Below are positions 5-45,433 of a stretch of DNA of 45,433 bases, one piece after another. Numbering within the stretch: the first letter of the stretch is position 1; every line of letters starts with the position of its first letter. Under the pieces are notes generated by a model. The model saw only the letters and a list, made by a program, of their open reading frames with translations. It made no database searches and was not told the DNA's origin. The translations under genes were made by a program, and so were the position numbers. The stretch covers positions 1 to 45,433 of IMG/VR virus record IMGVR_UViG_3300025018_000220; one strand, 5' to 3'. The DNA is from a virus (taxonomy: Duplodnaviria; Caudoviricetes).

Positions 5-184
5 ATGACAAATGCAAGTAATGCCACATGGAAGGCCACATTGAATGCCACAAGTAATGCCACATGGTTGGCCACATGGTATACCACATTGAATGCCACA
101 TGGGGTGCCACAGGGTATGTAACAGTGTCTGCCACAAAGCATGCCACAAGGGATGCTCTTGATAATGAAGTGGAATCATTATGA
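5..184 (+). CDS. xxAT-repeat micro-protein, 59 aa (MTNASNATWKATLNAT...RDALDNEVESL)
   Basis: Hand-translated; ATGA overlaps at both ends; 176/180 nt identical to reverse complement of 40441-40620. Confidence 0.75.
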   Translation: MTNASNATWKATLNATSNATWLATWYTTLNATWGATGYVTVSATKHATRDALDNEVESL

Positions 185-387
185 CAAATGCAAGTAATGC
201 CACAGGGTCTGCCACAGGGTCTGCCACAAGTAATGCCACATTGAATGCCACATTGAATGCCACAAGTAATGCCACAAGTAATGCCACATGGTTGGCCACA
301 TGGTATACCACATTGAATGCCACTATCAATGATGCCACAAGGGAGGCCACACGCGACTCCCTTTATAAAGAAGTGGAATCATTATGA
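181..387 (+). CDS. xxAT-repeat micro-protein, 68 aa, ends SLYKEVESL
   Basis: ORF track; ATGA overlaps; conserved tail. Confidence 0.75.
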   Translation: MTNASNATGSATGSATSNATLNATLNATSNATSNATWLATWYTTLNATINDATREATRDSLYKEVESL

Positions 388-515
388 CAAATACAAATAA
401 CGCCACGTTGAATGCCACATGGAATGCCACATGGAATGCCACATGGAAGGCCACAGGGGATGCCACAGGGGATGCCACCGGGGATGCTCTTGATAATGAA
501 GTGGAATCATTATGA
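384..515 (+). CDS. xxAT-repeat micro-protein, 43 aa (MTNTNNATLNATWNATWNATWKATGDATGDATGDALDNEVESL)
   Basis: Hand-translated; ATGA overlap; conserved tail. Confidence 0.7.
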   Translation: MTNTNNATLNATWNATWNATWKATGDATGDATGDALDNEVESL

Positions 516-1240: not shown

Positions 1241-1423
1241 ATGCTTGCAACGGATTTGTCTATTTTTGCAAAGACGCCTTCCAAGGGGGCTATAGATAAT
1301 GCAACAGAGTTGGCATTATGGCAGGAAGTATGGGGAAATAAGTCTATCCCGTTGAGTTTCGTGTGGGATGTTACCGCTCATGTCGTATATTATGCTCTTG
1401 TTGACGAGGTTGAATCATTATGA
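1241..1423 (+). CDS. Diverged member of the EVESL micro-protein family
   Basis: Ends YALVDEVESL with ATGA overlap; preceded by junction-like GAAAGTGAAACATTATG. Confidence 0.65.
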   Translation: MLATDLSIFAKTPSKGAIDNATELALWQEVWGNKSIPLSFVWDVTAHVVYYALVDEVESL

Positions 1424-1674
1424 ACACAGGGGTTACCACTATAAATGGCGAAAGGACCGCCACATGGAAGTCCATATGGTATCCCCTTCTTCAAAGAAAT
1501 GGAAACATTATGAATATAAGAGATACCACTGTTATTTCTGCATGGTATGCTACCGCATCTATTGTACCATACAGGACATTGGTAACGGTATATGGTCCAA
1601 TAACAAGCAATGAAGAAATTGCTAACGCTATATTGTTAAATCTTTTTGAAGAATATGACACATTAAGCGGCTAA
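1420..1674 (+). CDS. Hypothetical protein, possibly a diverged micro-protein family member
   Basis: ATGA-coupled; contains ATWKSIWY and AWYATA remnants. Confidence 0.55.
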   Translation: MNTGVTTINGERTATWKSIWYPLLQRNGNIMNIRDTTVISAWYATASIVPYRTLVTVYGPITSNEEIANAILLNLFEEYDTLSG

Positions 1675-3710: not shown

Positions 3711-5339
3711 TTAAACCGCAATTGGTGCTTTGAGATGGCCTTCAGATTTATATTCGGTCAGCTTGAAATGTTCAAGCTTTAACTCTTCCCATGCCAAATC
3801 TTTGACAACCGGATCAATAATCAGCTTTGGTGCTGGATGGTTCGCTCTAGAATACAGTTGTTCGTTAACTTGTTCTATATGATTGGAATAGATATGGGCG
3901 TCACCAATTGTGTGAATGAAACGTCCGGGTTTAAAATTGGTTTTTAATGCCATTATTGATGTTAGTAACGAATATGAAGCTACATTGAACGGAATCCCCA
4001 AGAAAAAATCCGATGATCTTTGATACAACTGACAATCCAGATATTCACCCCTTCTTACATAGAATTGAAACCATGCATGGCATGGAGGCAATGCCATATC
4101 ATGTATCATACCGGGATTCCATGCGGCAACAATATGTCTACGGCTATCTGGATCATTAATCAGACTGCTTTGAACTTGTTCAATCTGATCAACAATGCGC
4201 TGTTGACGGTATATAAAACCATCAGGTGCATCTATTGCCTTCATATCATATCCGTCAATATTTCTTTTTCCTGATAGGACTTCTGGAATTCTTCGTCTAT
4301 CTAAACCATATTCATCAGCACAATGTTTTGGTGATGTGTATATTTTTCCTTTAAATTCAAATGGTTGAGACCACTTGGATAAATTTTTATTATATTCTTT
4401 ATCTAAAAAAATTGCAGTTGTCTTTGAATATTGATTTGCACCAAAGTAATCTTTGTCTAAATTAAACATACTTGGTTGTTTGTTCCATGCCCAATAGTAT
4501 GGAACTTGAGAAATTGTGTTTTGAAAATATTCAAAACATTTCCATTCTGTAGATACACTAACGCCTTGGCCACCATATAACGGATAATTTGGATGATCAA
4601 CATTATAGCATTTCGCAATCATATTATACCATAAATCATATAATTTCTTATCATATAAAGAGTTACCAACACAAGCAACACCGTGAACCGTTAATGCATA
4701 TTTGTCCTTTACTTGTCCTTTTTTAATAGCAGGACGTGATGCTACTGTTATTGTTCCAGTATCATGAAATTGCAAACGCCACATACTATTCTTGTTGGAT
4801 GTATCCATGCCGATTTTATCCAAAACGGTATATCGGCATCCTTCCTTGTTTTCAAATTGCGTACCTGTAAGATCAGAATTCGTGATCGAATTCAAAGCAA
4901 TCATTTCTGGCATGTGTTTGATTGGTGAATCATTTTCTTTGTTTCTTATTCTAACAAGAGTGGCATGGGTTGATGGCTGTTCCCACCTTCGCCACTGACC
5001 ACCGTAGACATTATTTAAATCACCATTCTCATTTGCCCAATCATTCCAGAAATGAATATTATCTTTTTGTAATGATTTCACATTCGTTTCGCCGCGAAGG
5101 AACCAAAGCAATTCACCAACAATACCTTTCCAAAAGATTTTCTTTGATGTTAATATTGGAAAACTATGTTCCAGATTATAACATGATTGGAGACCAAACA
5201 GCGACCTAGTACCTGTACCAGTGCGATCCGTTCTGTCTTCGCCATTCAAAAGAATATGTTTCAATTGGTTAAGATATATTTTTTCATTTTCATAAGGTTG
5301 TTCACTTTCCGGAACCCGGTTTTCATTTTGTGGCATCAT
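3711..5339 (-). CDS. thyA: Thymidylate synthase with large in-frame insertion
   Basis: DRTGTGT, ELLWFLRG, VYGGQWR, AWNP, MALPPCH, YQRSSD.FLGIPFN, GDAHIYSNH; 542 aa versus the usual ~265-290. Confidence 0.95.
   Translation of the reverse strand: MMPQNENRVPESEQPYENEKIYLNQLKHILLNGEDRTDRTGTGTRSLFGLQSCYNLEHSFPILTSKKIFWKGIVGELLWFLRGETNVKSLQKDNIHFWNDWANENGDLNNVYGGQWRRWEQPSTHATLVRIRNKENDSPIKHMPEMIALNSITNSDLTGTQFENKEGCRYTVLDKIGMDTSNKNSMWRLQFHDTGTITVASRPAIKKGQVKDKYALTVHGVACVGNSLYDKKLYDLWYNMIAKCYNVDHPNYPLYGGQGVSVSTEWKCFEYFQNTISQVPYYWAWNKQPSMFNLDKDYFGANQYSKTTAIFLDKEYNKNLSKWSQPFEFKGKIYTSPKHCADEYGLDRRRIPEVLSGKRNIDGYDMKAIDAPDGFIYRQQRIVDQIEQVQSSLINDPDSRRHIVAAWNPGMIHDMALPPCHAWFQFYVRRGEYLDCQLYQRSSDFFLGIPFNVASYSLLTSIMALKTNFKPGRFIHTIGDAHIYSNHIEQVNEQLYSRANHPAPKLIIDPVVKDLAWEELKLEHFKLTEYKSEGHLKAPIAV
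4197..4979 (-). mobile_element. Homing-endonuclease-like (His-Me/HNH-related) domain inserted in frame within thyA
   Basis: LYDLWYNMIAKCYN...YPLYGGQGVSVSTEW..F and LDKD....YSKTTAIFL....N motifs plus C-terminal HTH-like CADEYGLDRRRIPEVLSG; locally more AT-rich. Confidence 0.7.
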
Positions 5340-24505: not shown

Positions 24506-26844
24506 TGAACAATAGACCTAGACTACCGGGATATCTCGGTGTTGGTGATTTTCCAGTGCGGACTGGCAATAATCAAAACAATAGATATAATCCTGATAAT
24601 ACTAATATATTTCTCGGAGGCAGAGGTCATACCACTAGCCAACCCTTGAATGAACTTGGCCGCACAACGGAATATGAAAGCTTGCCCCCGTCACCGTCTC
24701 GTACAAATGTTATACCCGGAAACAACAGCGAAAGCATTATTTCAGGAGAAGATGAAAATATTGCCAATACAATATTACATAAACATACGTTAGATGATTA
24801 TGTTTCAACAAAGTACAATATAAGACTAAGCCTTCTTGGTGATATCAACACTATTGAGACTACCAGAGAAAACTTGATGAACATTGAAAAAAAGTATTTC
24901 ATTGCCTCCAGTGATATCACGAATGCAGGCGAAAGCTATGGTGAAAACAGAACTGATACACAATATTTAATCAAATCATTGAATTTTAAAACAATCAACT
25001 CAATGACTTTGAACAATCCGGAAACACCAAATTCAACAATGTTCAAGATGGAGATTGAAGAACCTTATGGGTTCAGTCTTGATCGTGAAATAAGACATGC
25101 TGCTGCTTCACTTGGATACACAGTGGGATTTCCAGCGTCACGATTTGTATTCAGACTTGATATTTGGTTTTCTGGTTACAAAGAAGATGGAACTTTTGTT
25201 GAAAAGATACCTGTGATCAATTTGTATCCATCGTTATCGGCAACTAATGTGCAACGGCCTTCTTCGCCATTTGGGTCGCCCGCTCTTTCTGATGACATTG
25301 ATGGTCAGGCTGGGATAGAAGTATCTGGCAACTATCAAACGATTGACACTTTTTCATACTTTGTCAATATTATACAAATCAATTCTGAATTATCCAATGG
25401 CAATTCGACGCGATACGAATTGGACATGATACCTACCAATGATCTTGTCATGTATCCTGAATATGATGCGTTGCACATGTTTAATATAACATTGGGTGAA
25501 TCAGAAGGGAATTCAACCTTTGGTGAATATATTCAAGAATTTGAAAGAGTTTTAAACGATACATTCACATTTAATGATACTACCACCGTGCCACTAGAAG
25601 AAATCAAAAGATTAACACGTGGTGACAATCGCACGTCTTCCACTGCCGAAGAACTATTTGAGGGCTTGTCAGGTACTGAAACAGTTTTTCGAAACTATCA
25701 ATTCATTGTTGAAGATCAGGAATTATGGAATGCAGTGTTTGATGAACTACCCGAAAACAGTGATGAAACATCTGCTACCCGTTTCAATGTGGAATCGAAT
25801 TCAATTCGGGCCGACATTATAGAAAAGGTGACTAGAACCAGTTATGGTCGAAAGCATATGATTGGTGAACGGCAAGAAGATGGGTCATACCAAGTTCAAT
25901 ATCCAAGAGAAATATTTGTTGTCAGAACCGAAATTGATTACAACAATTCATCCATTTATGCGTATTCTGGTGATTTGATCAACATCACACTCAAATATTA
26001 TATAGAGCGCAAAAGGGAATACCGGTATATTCCAAGCAATTATAATGATTTACAAACTTGGTCCAGAAACAGAGAAGCGAGAGCCATGGAGATTGTTCAA
26101 AGTGGTGCGTTAAAGAAAGTGTACAAATATGTATACTCTGGTGATAACACTGTTGTTAAATCATTCAATATTAATGCAAATGTTTTTTGGCATGCTATCA
26201 ATAGTGATCCACACGCTGACATCAGGTTTCATTCATTATCAACCAGTGTGAATGAAACTGAAGAACAGGATCAAACGATCAGAAGGTTTGTTCCTGTGCA
26301 TTCCACAGCAGTAGCGGCGAGTGCATTAGAATCTATCACACATGGTACATCAACTGAAGAAAATATATTCCCTTATAGATCAACTGTGTTGCCGTTTTTT
26401 ATGAGACGGCAAGCAAACTCATTTCCTGATACGAGTGTTTCACAGGAAAATTTAATAGATTATTCACGATATCAGGAACAGCTTGAAAGGTTTTTGCGTG
26501 TACAATCTGTTAGTTTGGAAGGATTGGAAATACGCGGGGAACCACAATGGTTGTCAAGTTTGCATAACATTGAACGCCCGGTAAATACAAATGCGAGAGA
26601 ATTTGAAACATCTTTAGGCACTGACATTATATATTTGAAACTGGTCTATCCAGAACAGAGTGAATACATGAATCCGGAAAGTAATTATTCAGAGCCAATT
26701 CTAAAATCTGCCAATTATGGTGGATTTTATCAGGTTATTACTGTTGAGAATAAATTTGAAGGTGGCCTTTTTACACAAACATTCACAGGGCATAGATTAT
26801 CGCAAGAAATAGGACTTAGCAATGACTCGCAGACGGACAGTTAA
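24505..26844 (+). CDS. Putative baseplate hub protein
   Basis: 779 aa between gp53- and gp5-like genes; LEIRGEPQWL and GGFYQVITVENKFEGGLFTQ. Confidence 0.65.
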   Translation: MNNRPRLPGYLGVGDFPVRTGNNQNNRYNPDNTNIFLGGRGHTTSQPLNELGRTTEYESLPPSPSRTNVIPGNNSESIISGEDENIANTILHKHTLDDYVSTKYNIRLSLLGDINTIETTRENLMNIEKKYFIASSDITNAGESYGENRTDTQYLIKSLNFKTINSMTLNNPETPNSTMFKMEIEEPYGFSLDREIRHAAASLGYTVGFPASRFVFRLDIWFSGYKEDGTFVEKIPVINLYPSLSATNVQRPSSPFGSPALSDDIDGQAGIEVSGNYQTIDTFSYFVNIIQINSELSNGNSTRYELDMIPTNDLVMYPEYDALHMFNITLGESEGNSTFGEYIQEFERVLNDTFTFNDTTTVPLEEIKRLTRGDNRTSSTAEELFEGLSGTETVFRNYQFIVEDQELWNAVFDELPENSDETSATRFNVESNSIRADIIEKVTRTSYGRKHMIGERQEDGSYQVQYPREIFVVRTEIDYNNSSIYAYSGDLINITLKYYIERKREYRYIPSNYNDLQTWSRNREARAMEIVQSGALKKVYKYVYSGDNTVVKSFNINANVFWHAINSDPHADIRFHSLSTSVNETEEQDQTIRRFVPVHSTAVAASALESITHGTSTEENIFPYRSTVLPFFMRRQANSFPDTSVSQENLIDYSRYQEQLERFLRVQSVSLEGLEIRGEPQWLSSLHNIERPVNTNAREFETSLGTDIIYLKLVYPEQSEYMNPESNYSEPILKSANYGGFYQVITVENKFEGGLFTQTFTGHRLSQEIGLSNDSQTDS

Positions 26845-29800
26845 TAAACCAGTTTCCGAAACGGGATTTGTCCGTGCAACACGGAACACGTTTGAAAGTT
26901 ATCATAACTCTACACACAAACGTGATGGTTTATATTGGGCAAGCGTTGAAGATGATCATGATCCCCAAAAGCAAGGTCGCGTCAAGGTTCATATTCCGCA
27001 ATTGTCATTAAGTTCTGGACATGCTGTTGGCAAACGTGGGCCTAAGGGTGAGGGTGGCAATGGTAATCCGGGATTGATATGGTGTTATCCTATGATGCCA
27101 TCTTTTGGAACAACTGATTCCTATGGATCAGAAGAAGGTTTTGCAAATTCATATGGGTTTTGGGGACCACAGCCACGCAATGGCGATATTGTTGTTGTTG
27201 CTTTTGTAAACGGAACTATGCCAGTGTGGATCGGCTGTTTGCCCAAACCCAGAAAGAACTTCATGGTTCCGGGAGTTCCGGGCGCAGAAGTAGAAGGCGA
27301 AACATATCCTGTACCTGCAACTGAAAAAGCATCAACAAATATTAATCCAAGAAAAGTCTTTACTGGCCTTTGTCAATGTATCACAAATGCTGGCCTATAT
27401 AATGACCGTATAAGAGGCATAGGAACGTCAGGAAGCACCCGTGAGAGCCCGTCACGAGTTGCAGGCATGTTGACACCCGGAAGCCCAAATGAAGGAAGAC
27501 CGGGGCATTCCTTTATTATGGATGATTTGCCAGAACAACAAGGTATAAGATTTAGAACATCACATGGTCACCAAATCACATTCTCTGATGTATCAGATAC
27601 CATCTATATTGCAAGTGGTCAAGGCAATTCATGGATTGAATTGGGCGATGATGGCAAAATAGATGTATATTCAAAAGATAGTTTGTCCATTCATACAGAA
27701 GCTGATCTGAATGTGAGAGTAGATGGTGATTATCTGTTGGACGTAGCCGGTGATTATTATCATAAAATTGGTGGTGATTATAAATTAGAAGTTGGTGGCA
27801 ATACTGATCAAATCTTTAATGGGTATCTAAAAGCCAATATTGCCAAAAATTATGAAATAAGTGTAAATAAGAATTTGAAGGTTGCGGCTAATAAGAAGAT
27901 ACAGGTTATTTCTACTAATGATATGAGTTTGGCATCCAAGGCCAGAATGCTCATTTATGGATCAGGTGTCGTTGGTATTGATTCAGGCGTTAATGTCAAA
28001 ATGGAAAATGATATTGCATCTCTTCCATCGTTTAGTAGTATTACTTCAAATATTTCATCTACACTTGGTGCCATTGGTGGTAACATCACCGATATAACCA
28101 ATATTGCCAATATAGGTAATATTTCAGCTTTGGCTAGTGGTGTTAATCCTTCTGTGATAACAAATGCCATATCTGGTATGGGAGGAATTGCAACCAGTTT
28201 TGGTATACCTGCTTCAGATTTGGGTGGCGTGGTTGCATCATTTGCAGCCAATGGCTTTGATCCTTCATCTATTTCTACTAGTATTACGAATATGGTGGAA
28301 ACCATTGGAAATATTGGCAATATCACTGAACATCTTAATATAATTGAAAATCTTGGTTTGAATCTTTCTGATATCGATATTTCATCACATGGTTTACTAT
28401 CTATTATGGAAAAAATGAACAATGCCGGTTTATCATTATCAGATGCTACAACACTATTTGGAAGTGATATTGCATCATCATTTAATGACATTACACGACA
28501 AGGTGTATCCATTTCGGCATTGAATGCAAATATGGGATCAATTGATTTTAGTGCATTTAGAGACAATGCATCCGGGCTGGCAGCATCATTGACAACAAGT
28601 AATATCAATGATGTTCAAGCAACAGCCATGGCAGCCTCTCTTTCTCGTTTCACCGGTCCAAGGGCCAATACGAGAAATATTCTAAATCAATTTTCACACG
28701 TTCTTGAAAATCCATCTGACCAAGCATTGGATATCATGGCACGTGCAAACATTGATCCGGCAACAGTACAACTTACAGATTCAAATTTATTAAATGTGTT
28801 GTCTACACTTAAAGAAAGACAGTTGACAGTCGGCGTGGCACGACAATTGTTTGGTAGAGAACATGGTCCTTTTATATTAAACATGATCAATGATACAGAT
28901 AATATATCATCTATTATAACAGGATTTGACAATTTGGATAATTCTGTAATGTCCAATGTAATTAGTGGTGATTTTGGTGATTTTGGTGAGACCTTTGCTG
29001 ATGCAACAGGTGTTGTTAATAATATTGATTTGGGCCAGTTTGATTTATCAGGGTTGAATCTTAGTCAGGTGTCAGATATATTGAATCAAACAGGCATGGG
29101 CGATATTCCATTATCTTCGTTGAACATTGGTGATCTAAGAGAATTAATTGGAAACAATGTTTCCAATTTAAATATATCAAACCTTAGAGAAACATTGACT
29201 ACCTTGGGCTCTGGCAATGAATTACTAGGAAATCTCAATAGTGGTGATATTGGTGATACACTGAATAATATCAGTTTAGGGACATTGAGTAATTTTGGTG
29301 TAAACCTTGACCAAATTGGTGTATCAGGTTTAGAATCTGTATTAAATAATCAACTTACAGGTGCAAGTTCATCTGGAAGAATACCAACGCAATCATTACC
29401 CGGACCCCCATCACCGGGGCAAGCGCAAGCTGGGGCAACTGGCAGTAATCAACAATATATCAACAGACGTGTACCACAACATGAACCATGGAGACCAGAA
29501 GGACGAATTGCTCCAGAAGCAGTGGCCACTTCTGAATCAGGAAATGCGTCTGCGTCTGATGGTGGTGTTGAAACTGCAACGGACAGAAGGGCAGTCCCAA
29601 CAGGAGGAACAGAAACAGGTAACGCGCCAAGCGAAGGAACAGAGTTGGTACCAGAAGACATTGAATTTTTGGTTGTTCACTGTTCTGCATCACCTTCATC
29701 TAGTAATTATAACACAGAAAGCATAAGACGAACACATACCGTTACCAATAATTGGTCACGTATTGGTTATCATTATATCATTGAACGGGATGGCACTATT

Positions 29801-30133
29801 GTAAATACCTTGCCAGAAACGACCAAAGGTATTCATGTGGGTGCAGGTGGTATTAATAACAGATCACTTGCTGTTTGTTTGATTGGTGGCGTTGATCCGG
29901 ATTCAACCGGACGATTGAGAGCGGCACATAATTTCACAACTGCACAACTTGAATCATTGCGTGGGTTGCTTGATGAACTTGAAGGAAGATATCCATCAGC
30001 CCGATTGAGAGGCCATCGTGACTTCAACAACCTATACACCAATCCAGCAAATAGAAAAGATTGTCCATCCTTTAATGTCCAACATTGGCGACTCAGGGAC
30101 ATTCTTATAGAACCCAATGCACCAGCTGTATGA
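26822..30133 (+). CDS. Baseplate central spike (gp5/VgrG-like) with C-terminal N-acetylmuramoyl-L-alanine amidase
   Basis: DP.KQGRVKVHIP...P.NGD.V.V.F..G OB-fold; GH.F.MDD...IR.RTSHGH; V.GDY beta-helix repeats; VVHCSA, IGYHYII, GIHV, GHRD, KDCPSF. Confidence 0.88.
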   Translation: MTRRRTVNKPVSETGFVRATRNTFESYHNSTHKRDGLYWASVEDDHDPQKQGRVKVHIPQLSLSSGHAVGKRGPKGEGGNGNPGLIWCYPMMPSFGTTDSYGSEEGFANSYGFWGPQPRNGDIVVVAFVNGTMPVWIGCLPKPRKNFMVPGVPGAEVEGETYPVPATEKASTNINPRKVFTGLCQCITNAGLYNDRIRGIGTSGSTRESPSRVAGMLTPGSPNEGRPGHSFIMDDLPEQQGIRFRTSHGHQITFSDVSDTIYIASGQGNSWIELGDDGKIDVYSKDSLSIHTEADLNVRVDGDYLLDVAGDYYHKIGGDYKLEVGGNTDQIFNGYLKANIAKNYEISVNKNLKVAANKKIQVISTNDMSLASKARMLIYGSGVVGIDSGVNVKMENDIASLPSFSSITSNISSTLGAIGGNITDITNIANIGNISALASGVNPSVITNAISGMGGIATSFGIPASDLGGVVASFAANGFDPSSISTSITNMVETIGNIGNITEHLNIIENLGLNLSDIDISSHGLLSIMEKMNNAGLSLSDATTLFGSDIASSFNDITRQGVSISALNANMGSIDFSAFRDNASGLAASLTTSNINDVQATAMAASLSRFTGPRANTRNILNQFSHVLENPSDQALDIMARANIDPATVQLTDSNLLNVLSTLKERQLTVGVARQLFGREHGPFILNMINDTDNISSIITGFDNLDNSVMSNVISGDFGDFGETFADATGVVNNIDLGQFDLSGLNLSQVSDILNQTGMGDIPLSSLNIGDLRELIGNNVSNLNISNLRETLTTLGSGNELLGNLNSGDIGDTLNNISLGTLSNFGVNLDQIGVSGLESVLNNQLTGASSSGRIPTQSLPGPPSPGQAQAGATGSNQQYINRRVPQHEPWRPEGRIAPEAVATSESGNASASDGGVETATDRRAVPTGGTETGNAPSEGTELVPEDIEFLVVHCSASPSSSNYNTESIRRTHTVTNNWSRIGYHYIIERDGTIVNTLPETTKGIHVGAGGINNRSLAVCLIGGVDPDSTGRLRAAHNFTTAQLESLRGLLDELEGRYPSARLRGHRDFNNLYTNPANRKDCPSFNVQHWRLRDILIEPNAPAV

Positions 30134-36098: not shown

Positions 36099-36169
36099 AG
36101 TATCCTGTAAGCGAAGGACACATGGTGTGTTCACGTGTTTTAGTCGGATATTCCAAAGGAGCGAATCGC

Positions 36170-36949
36170 ATGGAACCCCGTAAAGAAAGCTCAACCATTG
36201 AGCAAACTCATCGTCAGATGATTGCAAGTGAAATCATCTCGGCATATTTGCAAAAAAACCCGGTCGATCTTGATATGATTCCTAATGTCATTAAGAGCAT
36301 TACGCGCGCGGCCAACATCATTTTTGAAACACCTGTTCAAAATGATGCTCTTACTGCAGCAGGTATTTCGTTGCATTCATCGTTTGATAACCTTGATATG
36401 TCTGATATCAAGGCTGTGAGAATGGCAACAGTCATGGATGACGCGATTGTGTGTCTGATTGACGGTAAGAAACTGAAGACAATGAAACGTTATCTTCGCA
36501 GCCATTATGATATTTCTCCCGAAGAGTATCGTCGGGCATTTGGTCTTCCAGTTGACTATCCAATGGTTGCACCTGCATATTCGCGTCAGCGTTCCAAGTT
36601 CGCCAAGAAAATCGGGCTTGGTACCAGCGATAGTCGCAAATCGGAAGACCTGTCTTCTGCTTCAGACCCGGAGAGTGACAGTTTGCTCTTCAACGGAAAT
36701 GAATTGCCGGAAGGTTTGAACGCCACGTCAATCGAAGACACATACACAGATGATTATATTGTCTGTCTGGAAGATGGAAACCATGTCAAAACGCTCAAGC
36801 GTTATCTCCGTAGCCGGTTTGACATGACTGTTGATGAATATCTCACAAAATGGGGTCTTCCAAAAACTTACCCAACGGTTGCACCGGCAACGTCCCGTGA
36901 TATGTCCAATGCCAAGAAAAAGGACCATGCTGCCAGCAAGGCCGCATAG
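36170..36949 (+). CDS. mucR: Ros/MucR-family regulator with two tandem DNA-binding domains
   Basis: EIISAYL..NPV....IP.VI; IVCLIDGKKLKTMKRYLRSHY...PEEYR..FGLPVDYPMVAPAYSRQRS.FAKKIGLG; second copy IVCLEDG...KTLKRYLR...WGLP..YP.VAP. Confidence 0.92.
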   Translation: MEPRKESSTIEQTHRQMIASEIISAYLQKNPVDLDMIPNVIKSITRAANIIFETPVQNDALTAAGISLHSSFDNLDMSDIKAVRMATVMDDAIVCLIDGKKLKTMKRYLRSHYDISPEEYRRAFGLPVDYPMVAPAYSRQRSKFAKKIGLGTSDSRKSEDLSSASDPESDSLLFNGNELPEGLNATSIEDTYTDDYIVCLEDGNHVKTLKRYLRSRFDMTVDEYLTKWGLPKTYPTVAPATSRDMSNAKKKDHAASKAA

Positions 36950-38109: not shown

Positions 38110-38144
38110 TACCATGGGAAAACCAAAAATCTGATGAATATATG

Positions 38145-38612
38145 TTATGATAATAGAGATAATCTATTTTTAATATCTAGAACGATTTCGTTGACCATGT
38201 TTTTGAAATCATCCTTATCAACAATAAAATGAGAAAACTCTAAATCATCATCATCATCACATGTGAAAAATATTTCATATTCATCTGAATCCTCATCGGT
38301 CCATTTGAATCCTTGATATACAGGTTTGTAAATACTATTAATAAAATATGTGATATCAGAACCATATTTGTCTTGATGATCCGAAACCCGTATTTTTAAT
38401 TCTTCTTCTAATTGATCATTATCGTCATATATTTGAATATTAATGTAAGCAGAACAAGAAACATTACTAAAACCGGTTTCTATATAAATAGTTGAAGATT
38501 TGAATTGTTCCAGCTGTTTATACACATCATTGATGACAGCGCTAGATAAATCATCTAATCCATCAAATCTGATTAAATTATCAATATTTTCAAACAAATC
38601 AATTATTTTCAT
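38145..38612 (-). CDS. Putative virion internal protein (MKIIDLFE leader), acidic
   Basis: Leader motif; GATAAATA at 38618-38625; KIRVSDH. Confidence 0.65.
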   Translation of the reverse strand: MKIIDLFENIDNLIRFDGLDDLSSAVINDVYKQLEQFKSSTIYIETGFSNVSCSAYINIQIYDDNDQLEEELKIRVSDHQDKYGSDITYFINSIYKPVYQGFKWTDEDSDEYEIFFTCDDDDDLEFSHFIVDKDDFKNMVNEIVLDIKNRLSLLS

Positions 38613-38837
38613 ACTATTATTTATCATATATTTCAATGGGGTTGACCATTGAAATCAATATGACCCGACAAAAAATACAACCTCGTGACAAAAATGATCA
38701 AATGTCATCTCCAGCCATTTCTACACATAATAAAGTAATTTCTTCTTTCAATCGGTCAATTTCCGTATTCAAGAACGCGATCTCGCCAAGCGCATCATCA
38801 GACATCGAAAGCCGCTTCAAAACGTCATCAACAAATG

Positions 38838-39032
38838 TCAGGTTCCCACTGAATCGGAGACTATATCAGCATCCAATTCAGCGGTTTCAGGCTGCAAGAA
38901 AATTGCCATAATTCGGTCTGTAGCCTCATCGCAATCAATAAACCTCTCCTTGCATGTGGCCACCTCAACCCGCACCGCCTCCCGTATAGAAGCCAAGTCT
39001 ATCACACCTTCCGCTGTTATTGGTTTATTCAT
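38838..39032 (-). CDS. Hypothetical protein
   Basis: GGAGG RBS; shares AT.RIMA.F with 39294-39911. Confidence 0.6.
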   Translation of the reverse strand: MNKPITAEGVIDLASIREAVRVEVATCKERFIDCDEATDRIMAIFLQPETAELDADIVSDSVGT

Positions 39033-39086
39033 TTAATCCTCCCGAAGCAGCTGTTATTGGTTTATTCATTTAATCCTCCCGAAGCA
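39013..39086. repeat. Perfect 37-bp tandem duplication of a gene junction
   Basis: GCTGTTATTGGTTTATTCATTTAATCCTCCCGAAGCA x2. Confidence 0.95.
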
Positions 39087-39244
39087 GCAAAGGCAATTAA
39101 CCCCGCCGTCACGGCGAAAGGCAAGGCCGCAATCATAGCCCGCCAAAGCGGTAAAGGCGGTCGCCGGTCCAAATCATCAAACATGTTCGCAGCGGTGAGG
39201 CCTATGAAAAACACAACAAAGACGAATACGAGCCAGAACATCAT
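39062..39244 (-). CDS. Small membrane protein (two hydrophobic segments)
   Basis: FWLVFVFVVFFIGL and AMIAALPFAVTAGLIAF. Confidence 0.6.
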   Translation of the reverse strand: MMFWLVFVFVVFFIGLTAANMFDDLDRRPPLPLWRAMIAALPFAVTAGLIAFAASGGLNE

Positions 39245-39293
39245 CCACCTACAGAATTAGACGAAGCGGCTTGTATGGCTTTATCGAGTTTAG

Positions 39294-39911
39294 TCATTCC
39301 GTCTCTCCATATTTGGCGCGCATAGACCAGTCGCCACCAAATATGCGCTCCCGATAAAGTTTTTGCTTGAACTCTTCGGAAAGCTCTTTGGAAGAAGACA
39401 TTTCCGGAAGGGGTGCGGATGCATTATTGGTTCGGCAAACAAAGATAGACAGATCAGCCCCATCGGACAGATCATAATAAAAAGAATCATAATTGAGTTT
39501 AGGCATCATCTCCTCTCCATATTCAGGTGCAGCAGCCAAGGCCACGCGATAAAGCGTTTCTGCATACTCGTATTCAACATTGGGCATATCGTTATCGGCC
39601 AGCCATTCGAATATCGCGCGAATTGTGTCGTGGGTCGGCTCTAACGGCACCAGCTTCCATCCGGCTTGAACAACCTCATGTCGGGACTCCAAGATCGGTC
39701 GGGATTTAACACCGGCATACTCGCCAGACTCAATCTTGCTGATTTCTTCGTCCGCCCATTCTAAGGCCTCTGGACTGACTTTTGGCGCGAACATCGCCAT
39801 GATGCGGGCCGTAGCCTTATCAGGGTCAGGATCACCAACATCGCTATACAGATCATCCGCGTAATCCATGATGATCGCCTTTATTGTTTTATGAATGTCT
39901 GTATGCGTCAT
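39294..39911 (-). CDS. Mosaic hypothetical phage protein
   Basis: AGWKLVPLEPT....YRVALAAAP module common in small phage proteins; higher GC. Confidence 0.7.
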   Translation of the reverse strand: MTHTDIHKTIKAIIMDYADDLYSDVGDPDPDKATARIMAMFAPKVSPEALEWADEEISKIESGEYAGVKSRPILESRHEVVQAGWKLVPLEPTHDTIRAIFEWLADNDMPNVEYEYAETLYRVALAAAPEYGEEMMPKLNYDSFYYDLSDGADLSIFVCRTNNASAPLPEMSSSKELSEEFKQKLYRERIFGGDWSMRAKYGETE

Positions 39912-39962
39912 GATTTTTATACTTTTCTGCTGGTTGTTCGTGTCAATTTTAATGTGTTTAAT

Positions 39963-39991
39963 AATATAACAAATATGATTGTCTTTGTCAA
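39963..39991 (-). promoter_or_regulatory. sigma70-like early promoter TTGACA-17-TATATT
   Basis: Perfect -35, extended TG. Confidence 0.65.
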
Positions 39992-40169
39992 TGAACTACT
40001 ATGAGCCTAAAAGCACCGCAGCTTCCTCTCCAGATGAGAAGAATTTTTCCTGCTTCCTTAATACATAACCAGATATTCTCCAGTTAGTGGTATCTCCACA
40101 GGCGTATATTCGGTGTGTCCCACACCTATTTATCGATTCAAGTGTAAACACCCGAGGACTTTTTAGTTA

Positions 40170-40292
40170 TCAGGTAGTTGACATGATTAATGATTCTGCT
40201 TCTTTATCAAGGACAACCCACGTAACATCATTTATAGCAGCCCATATGACATCCCATGCAGCAAACAGTATGGCATTATTTGCATTTGTCAG
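40170..40292 (-). pseudogene. Degenerate terminal unit (CTG in place of ATG; ends VLDKEAESLIMSTT)
   Basis: Hand-translated TNANNAILFAAWDVIWAAINDVTWVVLDKEAESL. Confidence 0.5.
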
Positions 40293-40444
40293 AATGTTTT
40301 AATCTCTTCATCAAGAGCATACCATATGGCCAACCATGTGGCATTACTTGTGGCATTACTTGTGGCCTTCCATGTGGCCAACCATGTGGCATTACTTGTG
40401 GCATTACTTGTGGCATTCAATGTGGCATTACTTGCATTTTTCAT
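40289..40444 (-). CDS. xxAT-repeat micro-protein, 51 aa, ends ALDEEIKTF
   Basis: Hand-translated; ATGA overlap at its start. Confidence 0.7.
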   Translation of the reverse strand: MKNASNATLNATSNATSNATWLATWKATSNATSNATWLAIWYALDEEIKTF

Positions 40445-40620
40445 AATGATTCCACTTCATTATCAAGAGCATCCCTTGTGGCATGCTTTGTGGCAGACAC
40501 TGTTACATACCCCGTGGCCTTCCATGTGGCATTCAATGTGGTATACCATGTGGCCAACCATGTGGCATTACTTGTGGCATTCAATGTGGCCTTCCATGTG
40601 GCATTACTTGCATTTGTCAT
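40441..40620 (-). CDS. xxAT-repeat micro-protein, 59 aa
   Basis: Hand-translated; one aa different from 5-184. Confidence 0.75.
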   Translation of the reverse strand: MTNASNATWKATLNATSNATWLATWYTTLNATWKATGYVTVSATKHATRDALDNEVESL

Positions 40621-40796
40621 AATGATTCCACTTCTTTATTAAGAGCATACCATGTGGCCTTACTTGTGGCATGCTTTGTGGCATTCAATGTGGTATACCA
40701 TATGGCCAACCATGTGGCATTACTTGTGGCATTACTTGTGGCCTTCCATGTGGCATTACTTGTGGCAGACCCTGTGGCCTTCTTTGCATTTTTCAT
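40617..40796 (-). CDS. xxAT-repeat micro-protein, 59 aa, ends ALNKEVESL
   Basis: Hand-translated; ATGA overlaps. Confidence 0.75.
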   Translation of the reverse strand: MKNAKKATGSATSNATWKATSNATSNATWLAIWYTTLNATKHATSKATWYALNKEVESL

Positions 40797-40984
40797 AATG
40801 ATTCCACTTCATTATCAAGAGCATCCCTTGTGGCATGCTTTGTGGCAGACACTGTTACATACCCCGTGGCCTTCCATGTGGCATTACTTGTGGCATTCAA
40901 TGTGGTATACCATGTGGCATTACTTGTGGCATCCATTGTGGCATCCATTATGGCAGACCCTGTGGCCTTCTTTGCATTTTTCAT
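40793..40984 (-). CDS. xxAT-repeat micro-protein, 63 aa (MKNAKKATGSAIMDAT...)
   Basis: ORF track with start reassigned to the junction ATG. Confidence 0.7.
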   Translation of the reverse strand: MKNAKKATGSAIMDATMDATSNATWYTTLNATSNATWKATGYVTVSATKHATRDALDNEVESL

Positions 40985-41138
40985 AATGATTATCAAGAGC
41001 ATCCCTTGTGGCATGCTTTGTGGCATTCAATGTGGTATACCATATGGCATTCAATGTGGTATACCATATGGCATTCAATGTGGCATTACTTGTGGCATTA
41101 CTTGTGGCATTCAATGTGGCATTGCTTGCATTTGTCAT
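40920..41138 (-). CDS. xxAT-repeat micro-protein with frameshifted tail (10-bp junction deletion)
   Basis: RDALDN then HYEKCKEG...; GAAGTGGAAT missing near 40990. Confidence 0.65.
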   Translation of the reverse strand: MTNASNATLNATSNATSNATLNAIWYTTLNAIWYTTLNATKHATRDALDNHYEKCKEGHRVCHNGCHNGCHK

Positions 41139-41332
41139 AATGATTCCACTTCATTATCAAGAGCATCACTTGTGGCATCCCTTGTGGCAGACACTGTTAC
41201 ATACCCCGTGGCCTTCCATGTGGCATTCAATGTGGTATACCATGTGGCATGCTTTGTGGCATTCAATGTGGCATACCATGTGGCATCCATTGTGGTGGTA
41301 TTTGCGGTATTCATGGTGTCATCTTTTGTCAT
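41135..41332 (-). CDS. xxAT-repeat micro-protein, 65 aa
   Basis: ORF track; conserved tail. Confidence 0.75.
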   Translation of the reverse strand: MTKDDTMNTANTTTMDATWYATLNATKHATWYTTLNATWKATGYVTVSATRDATSDALDNEVESL

Positions 41333-41508
41333 AATGATTCCACTTCTTTATCAAGTGCATCGGTAATACTGTAATACAAAATAGCAGTAACCCCTGTGAT
41401 GTGATCCCGTGTACACAGATGCACAGCTTTGCGTGTTTCATAATGCATCAGAGTATGAACACATTTGTAATTATAATATATCGGATTTATTATATCTGTT
41501 TTAATCAT
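41329..41508 (-). CDS. Non-repetitive 59-aa micro-protein with the family tail DALDKEVESL
   Basis: Hand-translated MIKTDIINPIYYNYKCVHTLMHYETRKAVHLCTRDHITGVTAILYYSITDALDKEVESL; GGAAG RBS. Confidence 0.65.
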   Translation of the reverse strand: MIKTDIINPIYYNYKCVHTLMHYETRKAVHLCTRDHITGVTAILYYSITDALDKEVESL

Positions 41509-41815: not shown

Positions 41816-41954
41816 TAGATATTCTATACTTCTCCGTTAATTTCTATTACTTGTCTAACCCAATTCTTCACACAATATGATTTTCTGTTCTGACCAAAAT
41901 CGTAAAGATGCAGTTGGATTAAGAGCAACACTCATTGTATTCTTTTTAACAGTA

Positions 41955-41984
41955 ATCAATATCAATATCAATATCAATATCAAT
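41955..41984. repeat. Hexamer microsatellite (ATCAAT)5
   Basis: Direct reading. Confidence 0.9.
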
Positions 41985-42109
41985 ACGATCACGCTGTCCA
42001 TGGTGTGTTTCATATTGATTCAACATCTTCGTGTCATTCCCTATGATGCTAATCATTGTTTAGATTATATTCGCTAAAGCATTACTCTTTGTAGTACATT
42101 TTACGTTTG

Positions 42110-42286
42110 TCATAATGTTTTCACTTCTTTATCAAGGGCCTCCCATGTGGCCTTCCATGTGGCCTCATTTGTGGTATGCAATGTGGCCTCCCATGTGGCC
42201 TCACTTGTAGCATCCCATGTGTCATTCTTCGTGGCCACCCATGTGGTCTCAATCGTGTTATACTTTGTATTTCTTGTGTTCTTCAT
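42110..42286 (-). CDS. xxAT-repeat micro-protein, 58 aa, ends ALDKEVKTL
   Basis: Hand-translated ...TWDATSEATWEATLHTTNEATWKATWEALDKEVKTL; ATGA overlaps. Confidence 0.7.
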   Translation of the reverse strand: MKNTRNTKYNTIETTWVATKNDTWDATSEATWEATLHTTNEATWKATWEALDKEVKTL

Positions 42287-42405
42287 AATGAGTTAACCTC
42301 TTTATCAAGACCATATTTTACAGGAGGAGTCTTAGAACGATTTGAAACTCTTATTAGATTATGGGCAGTAATATCCCACGATGGCGTGTCATTATTATTA
42401 TTCAT
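42283..42405 (-). CDS. Diverged micro-protein family member, ends GLDKEVNSL
   Basis: Hand-translated, 40 aa; 5' end uncertain. Confidence 0.45.
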   Translation of the reverse strand: MNNNNDTPSWDITAHNLIRVSNRSKTPPVKYGLDKEVNSL

Positions 42406-42501
42406 TGCAGCACCACGCGCCACATTGCGAATGTTGTATATAGCACGTGTTCATATGTGAACTGCCCGATGTCCTCGGGCTTTACGCTCGAATCGATAAA
42501 G

Positions 42502-42536
42502 AAAAGTGGGCCACTATGAAAAACACAGTGACCCAT
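42502..42536 (-). terminator. Rho-independent terminator
   Basis: TGGGTCACTGTG-loop-CATAGTGGCCCA followed by CTTTTCTTT. Confidence 0.7.
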
Positions 42537-42544
42537 TATCAAAA

Positions 42545-42928
42545 TTAGTCTGCGACCCGGCGAGCCAGTTTGGTCAGTGGGTCAACTTCCACATTGTTGG
42601 TGATGAGATAGTTACCCGGTTGGACAATTTGTCCAGCATGCGGGGAACTTGCATCTTGTTTCAGTGCAGACGGCTCATCCACAATTGCATAGAGAATTTC
42701 CATGCCTTTGTGTGTGCCGGTGTAAACCTTTGAGGCCCGTTCCAGCACGTGGTGGTGACCAGTCTCAGAGTGGCCAACAATGTAGCCTTTTCCGGGTGTT
42801 GGTTCTGCCGGGGTAAATCCAGTCAGGTCAACATCTCCTTTGTCAATGCGGAAGAAATTGACTTCCCCGTGGGCATTAGTGATCTTGCCAGCTTGGACGT
42901 TTGTAAATGGATCATTCATTTCAGTCAT
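42545..42928 (-). CDS. Small His-motif protein of the type found beside DUF6745 genes
   Basis: HGEV, GHSETGHHHVL, H.....PG.Y, ARRVAD C-terminus. Confidence 0.75.
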   Translation of the reverse strand: MTEMNDPFTNVQAGKITNAHGEVNFFRIDKGDVDLTGFTPAEPTPGKGYIVGHSETGHHHVLERASKVYTGTHKGMEILYAIVDEPSALKQDASSPHAGQIVQPGNYLITNNVEVDPLTKLARRVAD

Positions 42929-42934
42929 GATTGT

Positions 42935-44095
42935 TTAACTCCGTTGAGAGGGTTTAGAATAAAGATGCGCTGGTATGCGAGCATGCCATGCGTGGGCATG
43001 ATGCAGGTCAACACGTTCCAGCGCGTCACGGTCAACTGCTTCCATCATCTCGCCATTGCGAGGACAATGAAATTTTAGATATAACACTGTTTCGGGCAGA
43101 TCAGCAATAGATACTTCAATCAAATCGCCAACTAACGGATCAGGGTCACTATCAATGATATTATGCGGCAAGTCATTCAACATGCGGCTCATGCCAACAA
43201 TTGAAATGCCAGCTGCCCGTGTTTCTACTGATTCGGTTGTCAAAATTTCTGATGGCGAAACCTGATCTGGCGCATTGATCCAATGCCCCGGAACGTTGGT
43301 GTTGTGCCAGTAGTAAAGTTCCCAACCGTCACGCCAACGGTGCGACGGGCCGACCTCGCAGTGTGGTAGATTCTCTTCGTCAACATAAATGTTTTGAGGG
43401 AAATCTGAAACAATGCAGAACTTGTCATGCAACACACGCGGTCCACCATGAATGGCAGCTTCTTCCCACGGTGTATACTTTTTATACTCCGGCAATTGCA
43501 GGCCAAGAATATCTCTGGCAGCAGCAATAAAACATTCCGATGACACCCACATATTACCACCTTGATATGCAAATGACCATTCCTTTGTATGTTTAAAGCA
43601 GTTGGCATGAAGCGCCCGTGCAGCACGACGAGCAGATGCAGATGCATTTTGTGATGGTATACTGGATTGTTTCAGATCATCATAGTCAACGGGCGAACCG
43701 ATAGTTGCATTCAGTGCGGCAACAATTACTGAATTGTATACCGCATCTGCATCACTATCTGACATAGATGCAACCAATTCGTCTAATGGTGTTGCAAGTG
43801 CTGTTTGAGGATCATTCTCGTTTTCTTTAAGCAATGCACAAGCTGCACCATATGCATAAATCATGGAAAGAGGGGAAGACGCGATGGCCACACGTGGTTC
43901 ATCGATGTCTGTTACACGGTACAATTCTTTAATCGGAGAAATAATACTAGCCGGGTCAATAGGTTCTGTGCGGAAAGCACGGGAAATCCACAAGGATGAC
44001 AATTCTGCCATCTTGTGCCGTTCATCAGATGTAATACCACCACTGGCATAATCAGGGCGGCGAATGATTTTTTCTTTAATTTGCTCGTCAGACAT
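42935..44095 (-). CDS. DUF6745-like protein
   Basis: KFCIVSDFP..I.VDEENLPHCEVGPSHRWRDGWELYYWHNT.VP; AGGAG RBS. Confidence 0.75.
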   Translation of the reverse strand: MSDEQIKEKIIRRPDYASGGITSDERHKMAELSSLWISRAFRTEPIDPASIISPIKELYRVTDIDEPRVAIASSPLSMIYAYGAACALLKENENDPQTALATPLDELVASMSDSDADAVYNSVIVAALNATIGSPVDYDDLKQSSIPSQNASASARRAARALHANCFKHTKEWSFAYQGGNMWVSSECFIAAARDILGLQLPEYKKYTPWEEAAIHGGPRVLHDKFCIVSDFPQNIYVDEENLPHCEVGPSHRWRDGWELYYWHNTNVPGHWINAPDQVSPSEILTTESVETRAAGISIVGMSRMLNDLPHNIIDSDPDPLVGDLIEVSIADLPETVLYLKFHCPRNGEMMEAVDRDALERVDLHHAHAWHARIPAHLYSKPSQRS

Positions 44096-44304: not shown

Positions 44305-44381
44305 TGGTGGGCACTGCAGGACTCGAACCTGCGACCAAGCGGTTATGAGCCGCCAGCTCTGACCAACTGAGCTAAGTGCCC
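44305..44381 (-). tRNA. tRNA with CAT anticodon, most like tRNA-Ile2 (lysidine type), CCA encoded
   Basis: GGGCACT/AGTGCCC acceptor stem, TAGCTCAGTTGG D-arm, GGCGG-CTCATAA-CCGCT anticodon arm, GGTTCGAGTCC T-arm; paired 1:72 and no triple GC, so not an initiator. Confidence 0.92.
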
Positions 44382-45023: not shown

Positions 45024-45257
45024 TTATGCGTAACGTGGCAACGAATAAATTGTCACAGGATATCCACGTGAATTGTTACGTGTACCATTCTGTACAATAT
45101 TACCTTCATTGACCAGTTCTGACAAACGGGTCGAAACTGTTCCACGGTTCAATCCATGGCGGGTAACAATTTCCTGACATGTGCGTCCACGGCCACGAGC
45201 AATAGTCAGTTCGGACAAAATCCGGTCAGAAACAGAGGTGATAGTAGATTTAGCCAT
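45024..45257 (-). CDS. Winged-helix HTH DNA-binding protein
   Basis: GRTCQEIVTRHGLNRGTVSTRLSELVNEGNI...GTR; GGAGAG RBS. Confidence 0.8.
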   Translation of the reverse strand: MAKSTITSVSDRILSELTIARGRGRTCQEIVTRHGLNRGTVSTRLSELVNEGNIVQNGTRNNSRGYPVTIYSLPRYA

Positions 45258-45433
45258 TCTTCTCTCCATTGGCTGGTTAACAAACCATACCATATGACAT
45301 TCTGCGCGCCTTCCAACTTTGTATCATTATGTTTTCTTCAGCACAAGACGAACATATAGTATGACGGCAATCATTGCCTTACAAGAAAAAACAAAATTTT
45401 GCACATAAATACCTATGACGCACATCGGAGAAC

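Follow-up and report, generated by a model that had tools for sequence, protein, structure and literature searches.

Arrays of coupled x-x-Ala-Thr micro-genes beside a tract-less DUF6745 gene in a large T4-like myophage

Micro-gene arrays and their genomic setting

The window, which is the whole stretch of DNA analyzed here, is an entire virus record of 45,433 nt with a G + C content of 38%. An earlier note on this DNA had claimed eight chained micro-gene units at 40170–41508, with others at 5–515, 1241, 42110, and 42283, and all of these were found as placed, the eight lying on the minus strand. The units and the elements around them are listed below.

5–515, plus strand: end of array A, with A1 (5–184), A2 (181–387), and A3 (384–515); the contig begins within the array
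1241–1423, plus strand: diverged member with the tail kept; 14.1 bits against the micro-gene profile
1420–1674, plus strand: diverged fused member, two units joined by a +1 insertion in the tail
40129–40159, plus strand: 30–31-nt element, copy 2, inverted; identical at 27 of 31 columns; a hairpin (40112–40126) lies alongside
40170–40292, minus strand: B1, last unit of the array, 40 aa and degenerate, starting with CTG; its modules are worn and its tail runs on; 16.4 bits against the micro-gene profile
40289–40444, minus strand: B2, modular, 51 aa; tail variant; the L115 copy is identical
40441–40620, minus strand: B3, modular, 59 aa; 98% identical to A1
40617–40796, minus strand: B4, modular, 59 aa
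40793–40984, minus strand: B5, modular, 63 aa
40920–41138, minus strand: B6, modular; a 10-nt deletion in the tail leads to an out-of-frame read-on, 72 aa, across the B5 start
41135–41332, minus strand: B7, modular, 65 aa; polymorphic
41329–41508, minus strand: B8, which opens array B; the body has diverged, the tail is that of the family; 8.3 bits against the micro-gene profile (weak)
42110–42286, minus strand: C2, modular, 58 aa; the same in L092 and L105
42283–42423, minus strand: C1, diverged; related by its tail only (0.2 bits against the micro-gene profile); first gene past the terminator of the DUF6745 operon
42471–42500, minus strand: 30–31-nt element, copy 1, beside a hairpin
42507–42535, minus strand: hairpin resembling a terminator, which separates the DUF6745/partner pair from the micro-genes; consensus match only
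42545–42928, minus strand: His-rich partner, 127 aa; HSExGHxH motif; usual neighbor of DUF6745
42935–44095, minus strand: DUF6745 (PF20530) core, 386 aa, lying just upstream; the internal x-x-A-T tract that its relatives have is absent
43703–43750, minus strand: probable four-module tract vestige in the DUF6745 gene (residues 116–131, ending in LNAT), as judged from the sequence

GCCAC pairs at 12-nt spacing numbered 57 in the window and 0 outside the arrays, and 100 shuffles gave a mean of 0.02 and a maximum of 1. Thirteen tail-like junctions were also counted. Each unit had been described in the earlier note as a set of modules followed by a conserved tail. This description held for B2–B7, A1–A3, and C2, in which the modules are clean, but not for the bodies of B8, 1241–1423, and 42283–42423, where the tail is kept and the body has diverged. 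Similarly, the one junction deletion said to break the frame was recovered as the 10-nt deletion in B6, but a second event, the +1 insertion in 1420–1674, was also found. The lack of stop codons in the modules, which had been read as a sign of selection, turned out to be a weak argument (P about 0.03 among module types). Within the window, the codons inside each module are nearly invariant. The apparent "spacers" between repeats also consist of 12-nt repeats, in a single reading frame, and a CRISPR or other non-coding repeat array was rejected, given that the spacers are not unique and that no Rfam family matched at the arrays.

The His-rich partner was found beside DUF6745 in 75 of 80 viral loci and in 35 of 44 genome loci. 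The B/C cluster is bracketed by the inverted pair of 30–31-nt elements, which had no further copy in the window and no exact match in viral_contigs; it may serve as a promoter or as a site of inversion, or mark the end of an element. The DNA of the window tails likewise had no exact match in viral_contigs.

The window carries the gene set of a large T4-like myophage, including genes for a baseplate wedge, a gp5-like hub, SbcC/D-like proteins, thymidylate synthase, DHFR, and a ROS/MucR regulator. The sequencing runs containing the stretch were derived from aquifer, groundwater, and hot-spring metagenomes, and there were no RNA datasets among the 24 runs listed. MucR is a pointer to alphaproteobacteria, and the closest DUF6745 matches among genomes were mostly alphaproteobacterial, so this gene content suggests an alphaproteobacterial host. 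No close relative of the phage was found among 50,697 annotated phages. The phage-encoded ROS/MucR regulator (36122–36949, 275 aa) has two matched stretches, the thymidylate synthase (3711–5339, 542 aa) contains a large insertion, and the gp5-like baseplate hub (26822–30133, 1103 aa) has a tape-measure-like middle and an amidase at its C-terminus. Other features are an exact 37-nt tandem duplication (39013–39086), a short run of (ATATCA)n (41946–41996), a small HTH gene (45024–45293), and a tRNA with anticodon CAT just upstream of the DUF6745 gene (44305–44381). Rfam matches in the window were limited to the tRNA.

Variation among assemblies and constraint on the peptides

A junction-motif scan of metagenome contigs returned 33 stretches, of which 2 were the window itself (L098 and L118, excluded from all counts), 10 were other assemblies of the phage, and the rest were chance matches. 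The arrays were present in other assemblies and runs of the same phage, and the concern that they might be assembly artefacts was not borne out as such. L115 showed 0 differences from the window in 2417 nt (38118–40534), and L110 showed 2 differences in 4161 nt. Array words occurred at several times the flank depth in four runs. Since the arrays have exact stretches of 56–103 nt in common, the order of the central units could be mis-joined; the order of B4–B6 is found in the window record and confirmed by no other.

Comparison of array composition across assemblies of the phage revealed different in-frame units between near-identical flanks. In the B7 allele of L092/L105, 10 of codons 21–38 are changed, all of them non-synonymously, and the flank differs at 2 of 2240 nt. 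The cluster of substitutions that marks this alternative allele was also observed in runs X2 and X7 and not in X1. Array A has other alleles in L094, L113, and L120, and a third array (D), divergent from array A, was present in L120, L112, and L104. Among the complete modular units of the window and seven other loci, 22 of 22 distinct units are in frame, and the lengths of 8 of the 22 are not multiples of 12 nt; B6 and B1 are not part of this count, nor are the genes that keep only the tail, the fused gene, and the partial, frameshifted unit with which L094 begins. The in-frame units and the B7 allele pair support the proposal that these are coupled genes under constraint at the peptide level, diversifying by module shuffling.

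Two rearrangements were also observed. L105 joins the start of array B to units seen in array A of the window. Furthermore, about 1 kb between the divergent arrays A and D is inverted between L104 (1–736) and L120 (344–1079), by recombination or as an assembly chimera.

The Ala-Thr pair is encoded as GCC ACA, GCC ACT, GCC ACG, or GCA ACC depending on the lineage, with one codon set per module within a genome. That lineages differ in the codons they use for Ala-Thr places the constraint on the protein rather than on the DNA. Distant phages with different DNA also retain both the start of the units and their tail motif, A-[LI]-x-x-E-[LVI], and the tail codons vary synonymously in the diverged members. 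The tail carries a modest ribosome-binding site that lies 5–7 nt ahead of the following start, with energies of −3.5 to −7 kcal (median of window genes, −3.9). These energies are ordinary, with 24% of random sites reaching −3 kcal. The hydrophobicity of the units peaks at a period of 4.0. On the evidence of these sequences, the micro-genes are real, selected, and fast-changing, and they are the Ala-Thr form of a recurrent DUF6745 system.

The DUF6745 tract and the distribution of free arrays

The core gene scored 28.9 bits against PF20530 (cut-off, 27). PF20530 was found in 120 of the 120 homologues listed (the best 120 of 258), and 105 of the same 120 contained three or more x-x-AT-x-x-AT repeats. 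The internal tract of DUF6745 homologues ranged from 3 to over 60 repeats. The window core had 0 repeat pairs in its central 104 residues. A profile of nine micro-gene units gave 99 matches among 1.8 billion proteins; of the 33 that were scanned, 21 were DUF6745 proteins (19 above the Pfam cut-off), and the matches other than DUF6745 were eukaryotic PT repeats or other scaffolds. No Pfam or PHROG match was detected for the four micro-gene units scanned, and the units match only the tract of DUF6745 proteins. The earlier suggestion of a peptide-diversification system is therefore kept as to diversification and revised as to its stand-alone nature, since the modules correspond to the detached tract of the neighboring DUF6745 gene; a widespread three-part system is indicated in place of a stand-alone peptide generator.

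The AlphaFold model of the core had a pLDDT of 86 and places the tract site between helices 75–94 and 151–162, whereas a tract-bearing homologue folded without an alignment reached a pLDDT of 36, too low to use. In fold searches with the core model, Foldseek returned no match at E ≤ 0.001 and the best VIA Z was 4.2, which does not show that the fold is new, and no PDB sequence matched the core. The core contains invariant His, Cys, and Asp residues. PADLOC families matched 0 of the core, the partner, and three homologues. DUF6745-related proteins in L212, L216, L230, L241, and L193 carry tracts built from other alphabets, among them the Ala-Ala-x-x known from Tweety gp54 and a three-residue Ser-Ala-x. 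The x-x-Ala-Thr tract was also seen in non-DUF6745 proteins of L168 (9428–10186) and L176 (829–1455).

The distribution of free repeat genes was then compared with the state of the core. At least two free repeat genes were found in 0 of 68 viral DUF6745 loci with a tract, 32 of which are cut by contig ends, and in 3 of 12 viral loci with a tract-less or unclear core, three of the 12 non-tract loci being uninformative fragments; L058/L173 adds a fourth across contig ends. Pristine arrays occurred in L008/L009, which are near-identical phages, and in L014. One or two free repeat genes were present in L030 and L078. The tract-less cores of L022, L070, and L078 are flanked by rows of overlapping, unrelated-looking genes of 57–80 aa, and the row in L022 retains a residual period-4 signal. 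Three of five tract-less fragments had no detectable repeat genes, and no arrays were found in 44 bacterial-genome DUF6745 loci. A narrower micro-gene alignment used as a locus scan recovered only the three loci already known, and a broad alignment was too variable.

A DNA-pattern scan blind to DUF6745 yielded 16 stretches, comprising 8 internal tracts, 4 free arrays, 2 other scaffolds, and 2 unrelated stretches. The 4 free-array stretches, from 3 phages, all lay on contigs with a tract-less DUF6745. A scan led by the partner gene covered 77 loci and found Gln-Val arrays at 3 of them. The cores of these 3 are tract-less, a class that here includes other repeat alphabets missed by the filter; among 37 tract-bearing loci, 0 had such an array. 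These Gln-Val tetrapeptide micro-gene arrays adjoin a tract-less DUF6745 in L245/L247 and L250.

Eight tract-bearing records (7 at least 90% complete) were searched over their full length, and in 7 of the 8 the matches were confined to the core gene. The near-complete, tract-bearing G007 has one free degenerate repeat gene (L264, 511–744) between the partner and DUF6745. Because G007 has both, the exclusion of free genes by the tract is not absolute, and it is possible that G007 represents an intermediate state. The complete, tract-less genome G011 contains 11 free genes.

A tree of 69 core rows was constructed with the tract removed; it is unrooted, near-duplicate and truncated loci were excluded, and half of the protein rows had been selected by their likeness to the window. 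The window core sits on a long branch inside starred tract-bearing clades (4 of 5, 5 of 6, and 9 of 10 rows); neither L058 nor the L008/L014/L022 group falls with it, and the starred branches force at least five changes of tract state. Grouping the window with L008, L014, L022, and P0123, a group named after the tree had been seen, was rejected (p-AU, 1e-4). Repeated detachment of the tract would be the simplest reading of this core phylogeny.

Proposed mechanism, rival readings, and related systems

According to the reading that we favor, the units would be translated as coupled micro-genes and would represent a detached and multiplied form of the DUF6745 tetrapeptide tract. Each peptide is predicted to form one helix, in which the Ala-Thr stripe would pack against another helix and the variable W, Y, R, K, D, N, L, and S residues would face outward. 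The role that the tract plays in cis may be taken over in trans by the peptides, which would dock on the core of DUF6745 and its His-rich partner. Once docked, they would provide this core with interchangeable surfaces for recognizing host proteins, among which those of defence or regulation are the most plausible. Slippage by 12 nt, together with exchange between units and arrays, would reshuffle the peptide set. The tail would act both as a conserved helix end and as the start signal of the next gene, so that recombinant units would stay coupled, and copies at the edges of the arrays would drift into unique small proteins.

We give a little under an even chance to the proposal that the peptides are the detached and multiplied variable helix of DUF6745, serving in trans as interchangeable recognition parts on the core and partner against host targets. 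A more general version, in which a two-protein core takes helical recognition peptides from self-shuffling arrays, arose several times by tract detachment, allows a single virion population to probe many host targets together, and seeds new small proteins, is put forward tentatively and is rather unlikely to hold as a whole. Some findings argue against the favored reading. The tract also occurs in the unrelated scaffolds of L168 and L176 and may not need this core; between the core operon and the micro-genes there is a terminator-like hairpin, and arrays A and D are distant from the core. In addition, 12-nt slippage preserves the frame without selection, and several tract-less cores, including LMM01 gp174, have no detectable repeat genes.

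Alternatively, the tract may have escaped from DUF6745 to give peptides that act alone, as decoys or inhibitors of host proteins, in an array that breeds new, diverging helical micro-proteins. The continuum from pristine units to unique bodies with the tail alone kept (B1, 1241–1423, B8, and C1) fits this explanation, as do the overlapping gene rows at the tract-less cores of L022, L070, and L078, with the residual period-4 of L022, and the occurrence of arrays at three places in the window phage. It gives no account, however, of why, in separate lineages, arrays accompany a tract-less core that has been retained together with its partner, and we regard it as unlikely. The presence of the tract in a fused or a split form is also compatible with DUF6745 and its partner being a modifying enzyme, for which the tract would be the substrate in cis and the micro-genes would provide substrates in trans with a follower-like tail. 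In borosin RiPP pathways, the substrate region is either fused to the enzyme or separately encoded, and the likeness to the window lies in this fused/split pattern; no methyltransferase or other known enzyme, in contrast, was found for the pair here. A variable core rich in Thr, Ser, and Asn with a constant tail, the invariant His/Cys/Asp of the DUF6745 core, and the His cluster of the partner are in keeping with such an enzyme, but searches of Pfam, NCBIfam, and PDB by sequence or fold gave no enzyme match, and no protease, transporter, or known RiPP gene was found nearby. A substrate role is considered improbable, though an enzyme of an unknown kind would be missed by such searches.

Low probability is also assigned to a role of the DNA itself, in which the arrays would be donor cassettes or substrates for recombination or inversion and the peptides would be by-products. 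Nearly invariant codons within a genome, the movement of units between arrays, the inversion of the A–D segment in L104 relative to L120, and the inverted 31-nt elements around the B/C cluster all agree with it. On the other hand, the contig carries a single DUF6745 gene, and this gene lacks a tract that could accept cassettes; each unit is equipped with a start, a stop, and coupling of its own; lineages differ in the DNA motif yet retain Ala-Thr; and the exact inter-array repeats could yield the inversion as an assembly chimera. The last rival, a selfish or neutral minisatellite whose 12-bp repeat expands by slippage and stays in frame by chance, is already weakened and seems quite doubtful. 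Steps of 12 nt would indeed preserve the frame without selection, and B6, B1, 1420–1674, and the partial unit of L094 are damaged, fused, or frameshifted, but all of the complete units are in frame despite the lengths that are not multiples of 12 nt, the start and tail are kept in distant phages with different DNA, and the arrays are linked to DUF6745. N-glycosylation was rejected for the many N-x-T sequons, which are accompanied by no visible export signal; Asn accounts for 16% of the residues at that position in DUF6745 tracts compared with 39% here. Antifreeze Ala-Thr peptides were discarded as having a different spacing, and iteron or origin DNA as its codons change between lineages.

The closest known relatives are the DUF6745 proteins (PF20530, phrog_31813) with an internal tract. 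The window gene is a member of this family and has the same His-rich partner, and the micro-gene module is the x-x-A-T tract; the difference is that the tract appears detached and multiplied into coupled genes of 27–73 aa with a tail of their own. The gp54 protein of mycobacteriophage Tweety, together with Che8 gp57 and PMC gp51, is described as having a 12-bp unit in which two residues are fixed and two vary, with third codon positions nearly invariant and variation at the first and second positions (PMC2884959). All of these features are shared by the window units. The repeat number of Tweety gp54 is reported to tune counter-defence against Phrann gp29/gp30 (PMC9262239). The scaffold of gp54 differs from that of DUF6745 (no DUF6745 match; hhalign probability 0.2%, E 0.28; no Pfam family), and its tract is Ala-Ala-x-x instead of x-x-Ala-Thr, internal to one gene, with no partner gene and no free copies. 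Judging by these comparisons, Tweety gp54 is an analogue and not a homologue of the DUF6745 system, and it is by this analogy that a decoy or anti-defence function, as raised in the earlier note, may be suggested for the peptides. Variable region 2 of bbp36 from Bordetella phage BMP-1 is likewise described as a modular repeat of varying copy number with a 24-bp unit (PMC2884959). It resembles the window arrays, by description, as a modular repeat of a phage, but lies inside one gene.

Searches of the literature found no report on DUF6745 or on detached repeat arrays, with subscription journals and bioRxiv supplements lying outside the search. Searches on small-ORF tandem arrays, hypervariable microproteins, de novo gene arrays, and LMM01 gp174 or its paralogues returned nothing relevant, a further one gave only Tweety reviews as relevant, and atlas searches returned only unnamed viral clusters. 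Tiny, unannotated genes are numerous in large phage genomes, and the present findings link one abundant class of them to a widespread protein pair. They also offer a testable rule, namely, that the tract is either inside the core or present in the form of free genes. Should the peptides prove to be swappable specificity parts, the arrays would constitute a route to diversification that works without reverse transcriptase or recombinase, and they would generalize the one repeat-tuned counter-defence protein studied so far. The arrays also illustrate the emergence of new small genes from a repeat, with alleles that already differ between near-identical genomes.

Microcystis phage LMM01, a cultured phage, encodes a tract-less DUF6745 (gp174) and the partner (gp175). 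Approximately 12 kb from gp174, gp137–gp157 (L262, 36752–41397) form a series of 21 overlapping paralogous micro-genes on the same strand with a common start and tail. Unlike the window units, they have no tetrapeptide repeat; homology to the window units was not detected (hhalign, 0.1%), and their link to gp174 is putative. Expression of gp174 and gp175 falls in the middle phase, at log2 FPKM values of 11.6–12.6, and the six LMM01 genes that were compared belong to the same middle cluster (PMC5780444). Such timing does not support a role in immediate-early takeover. LMM01 gp174/gp175 provide a cultured handle on the core.
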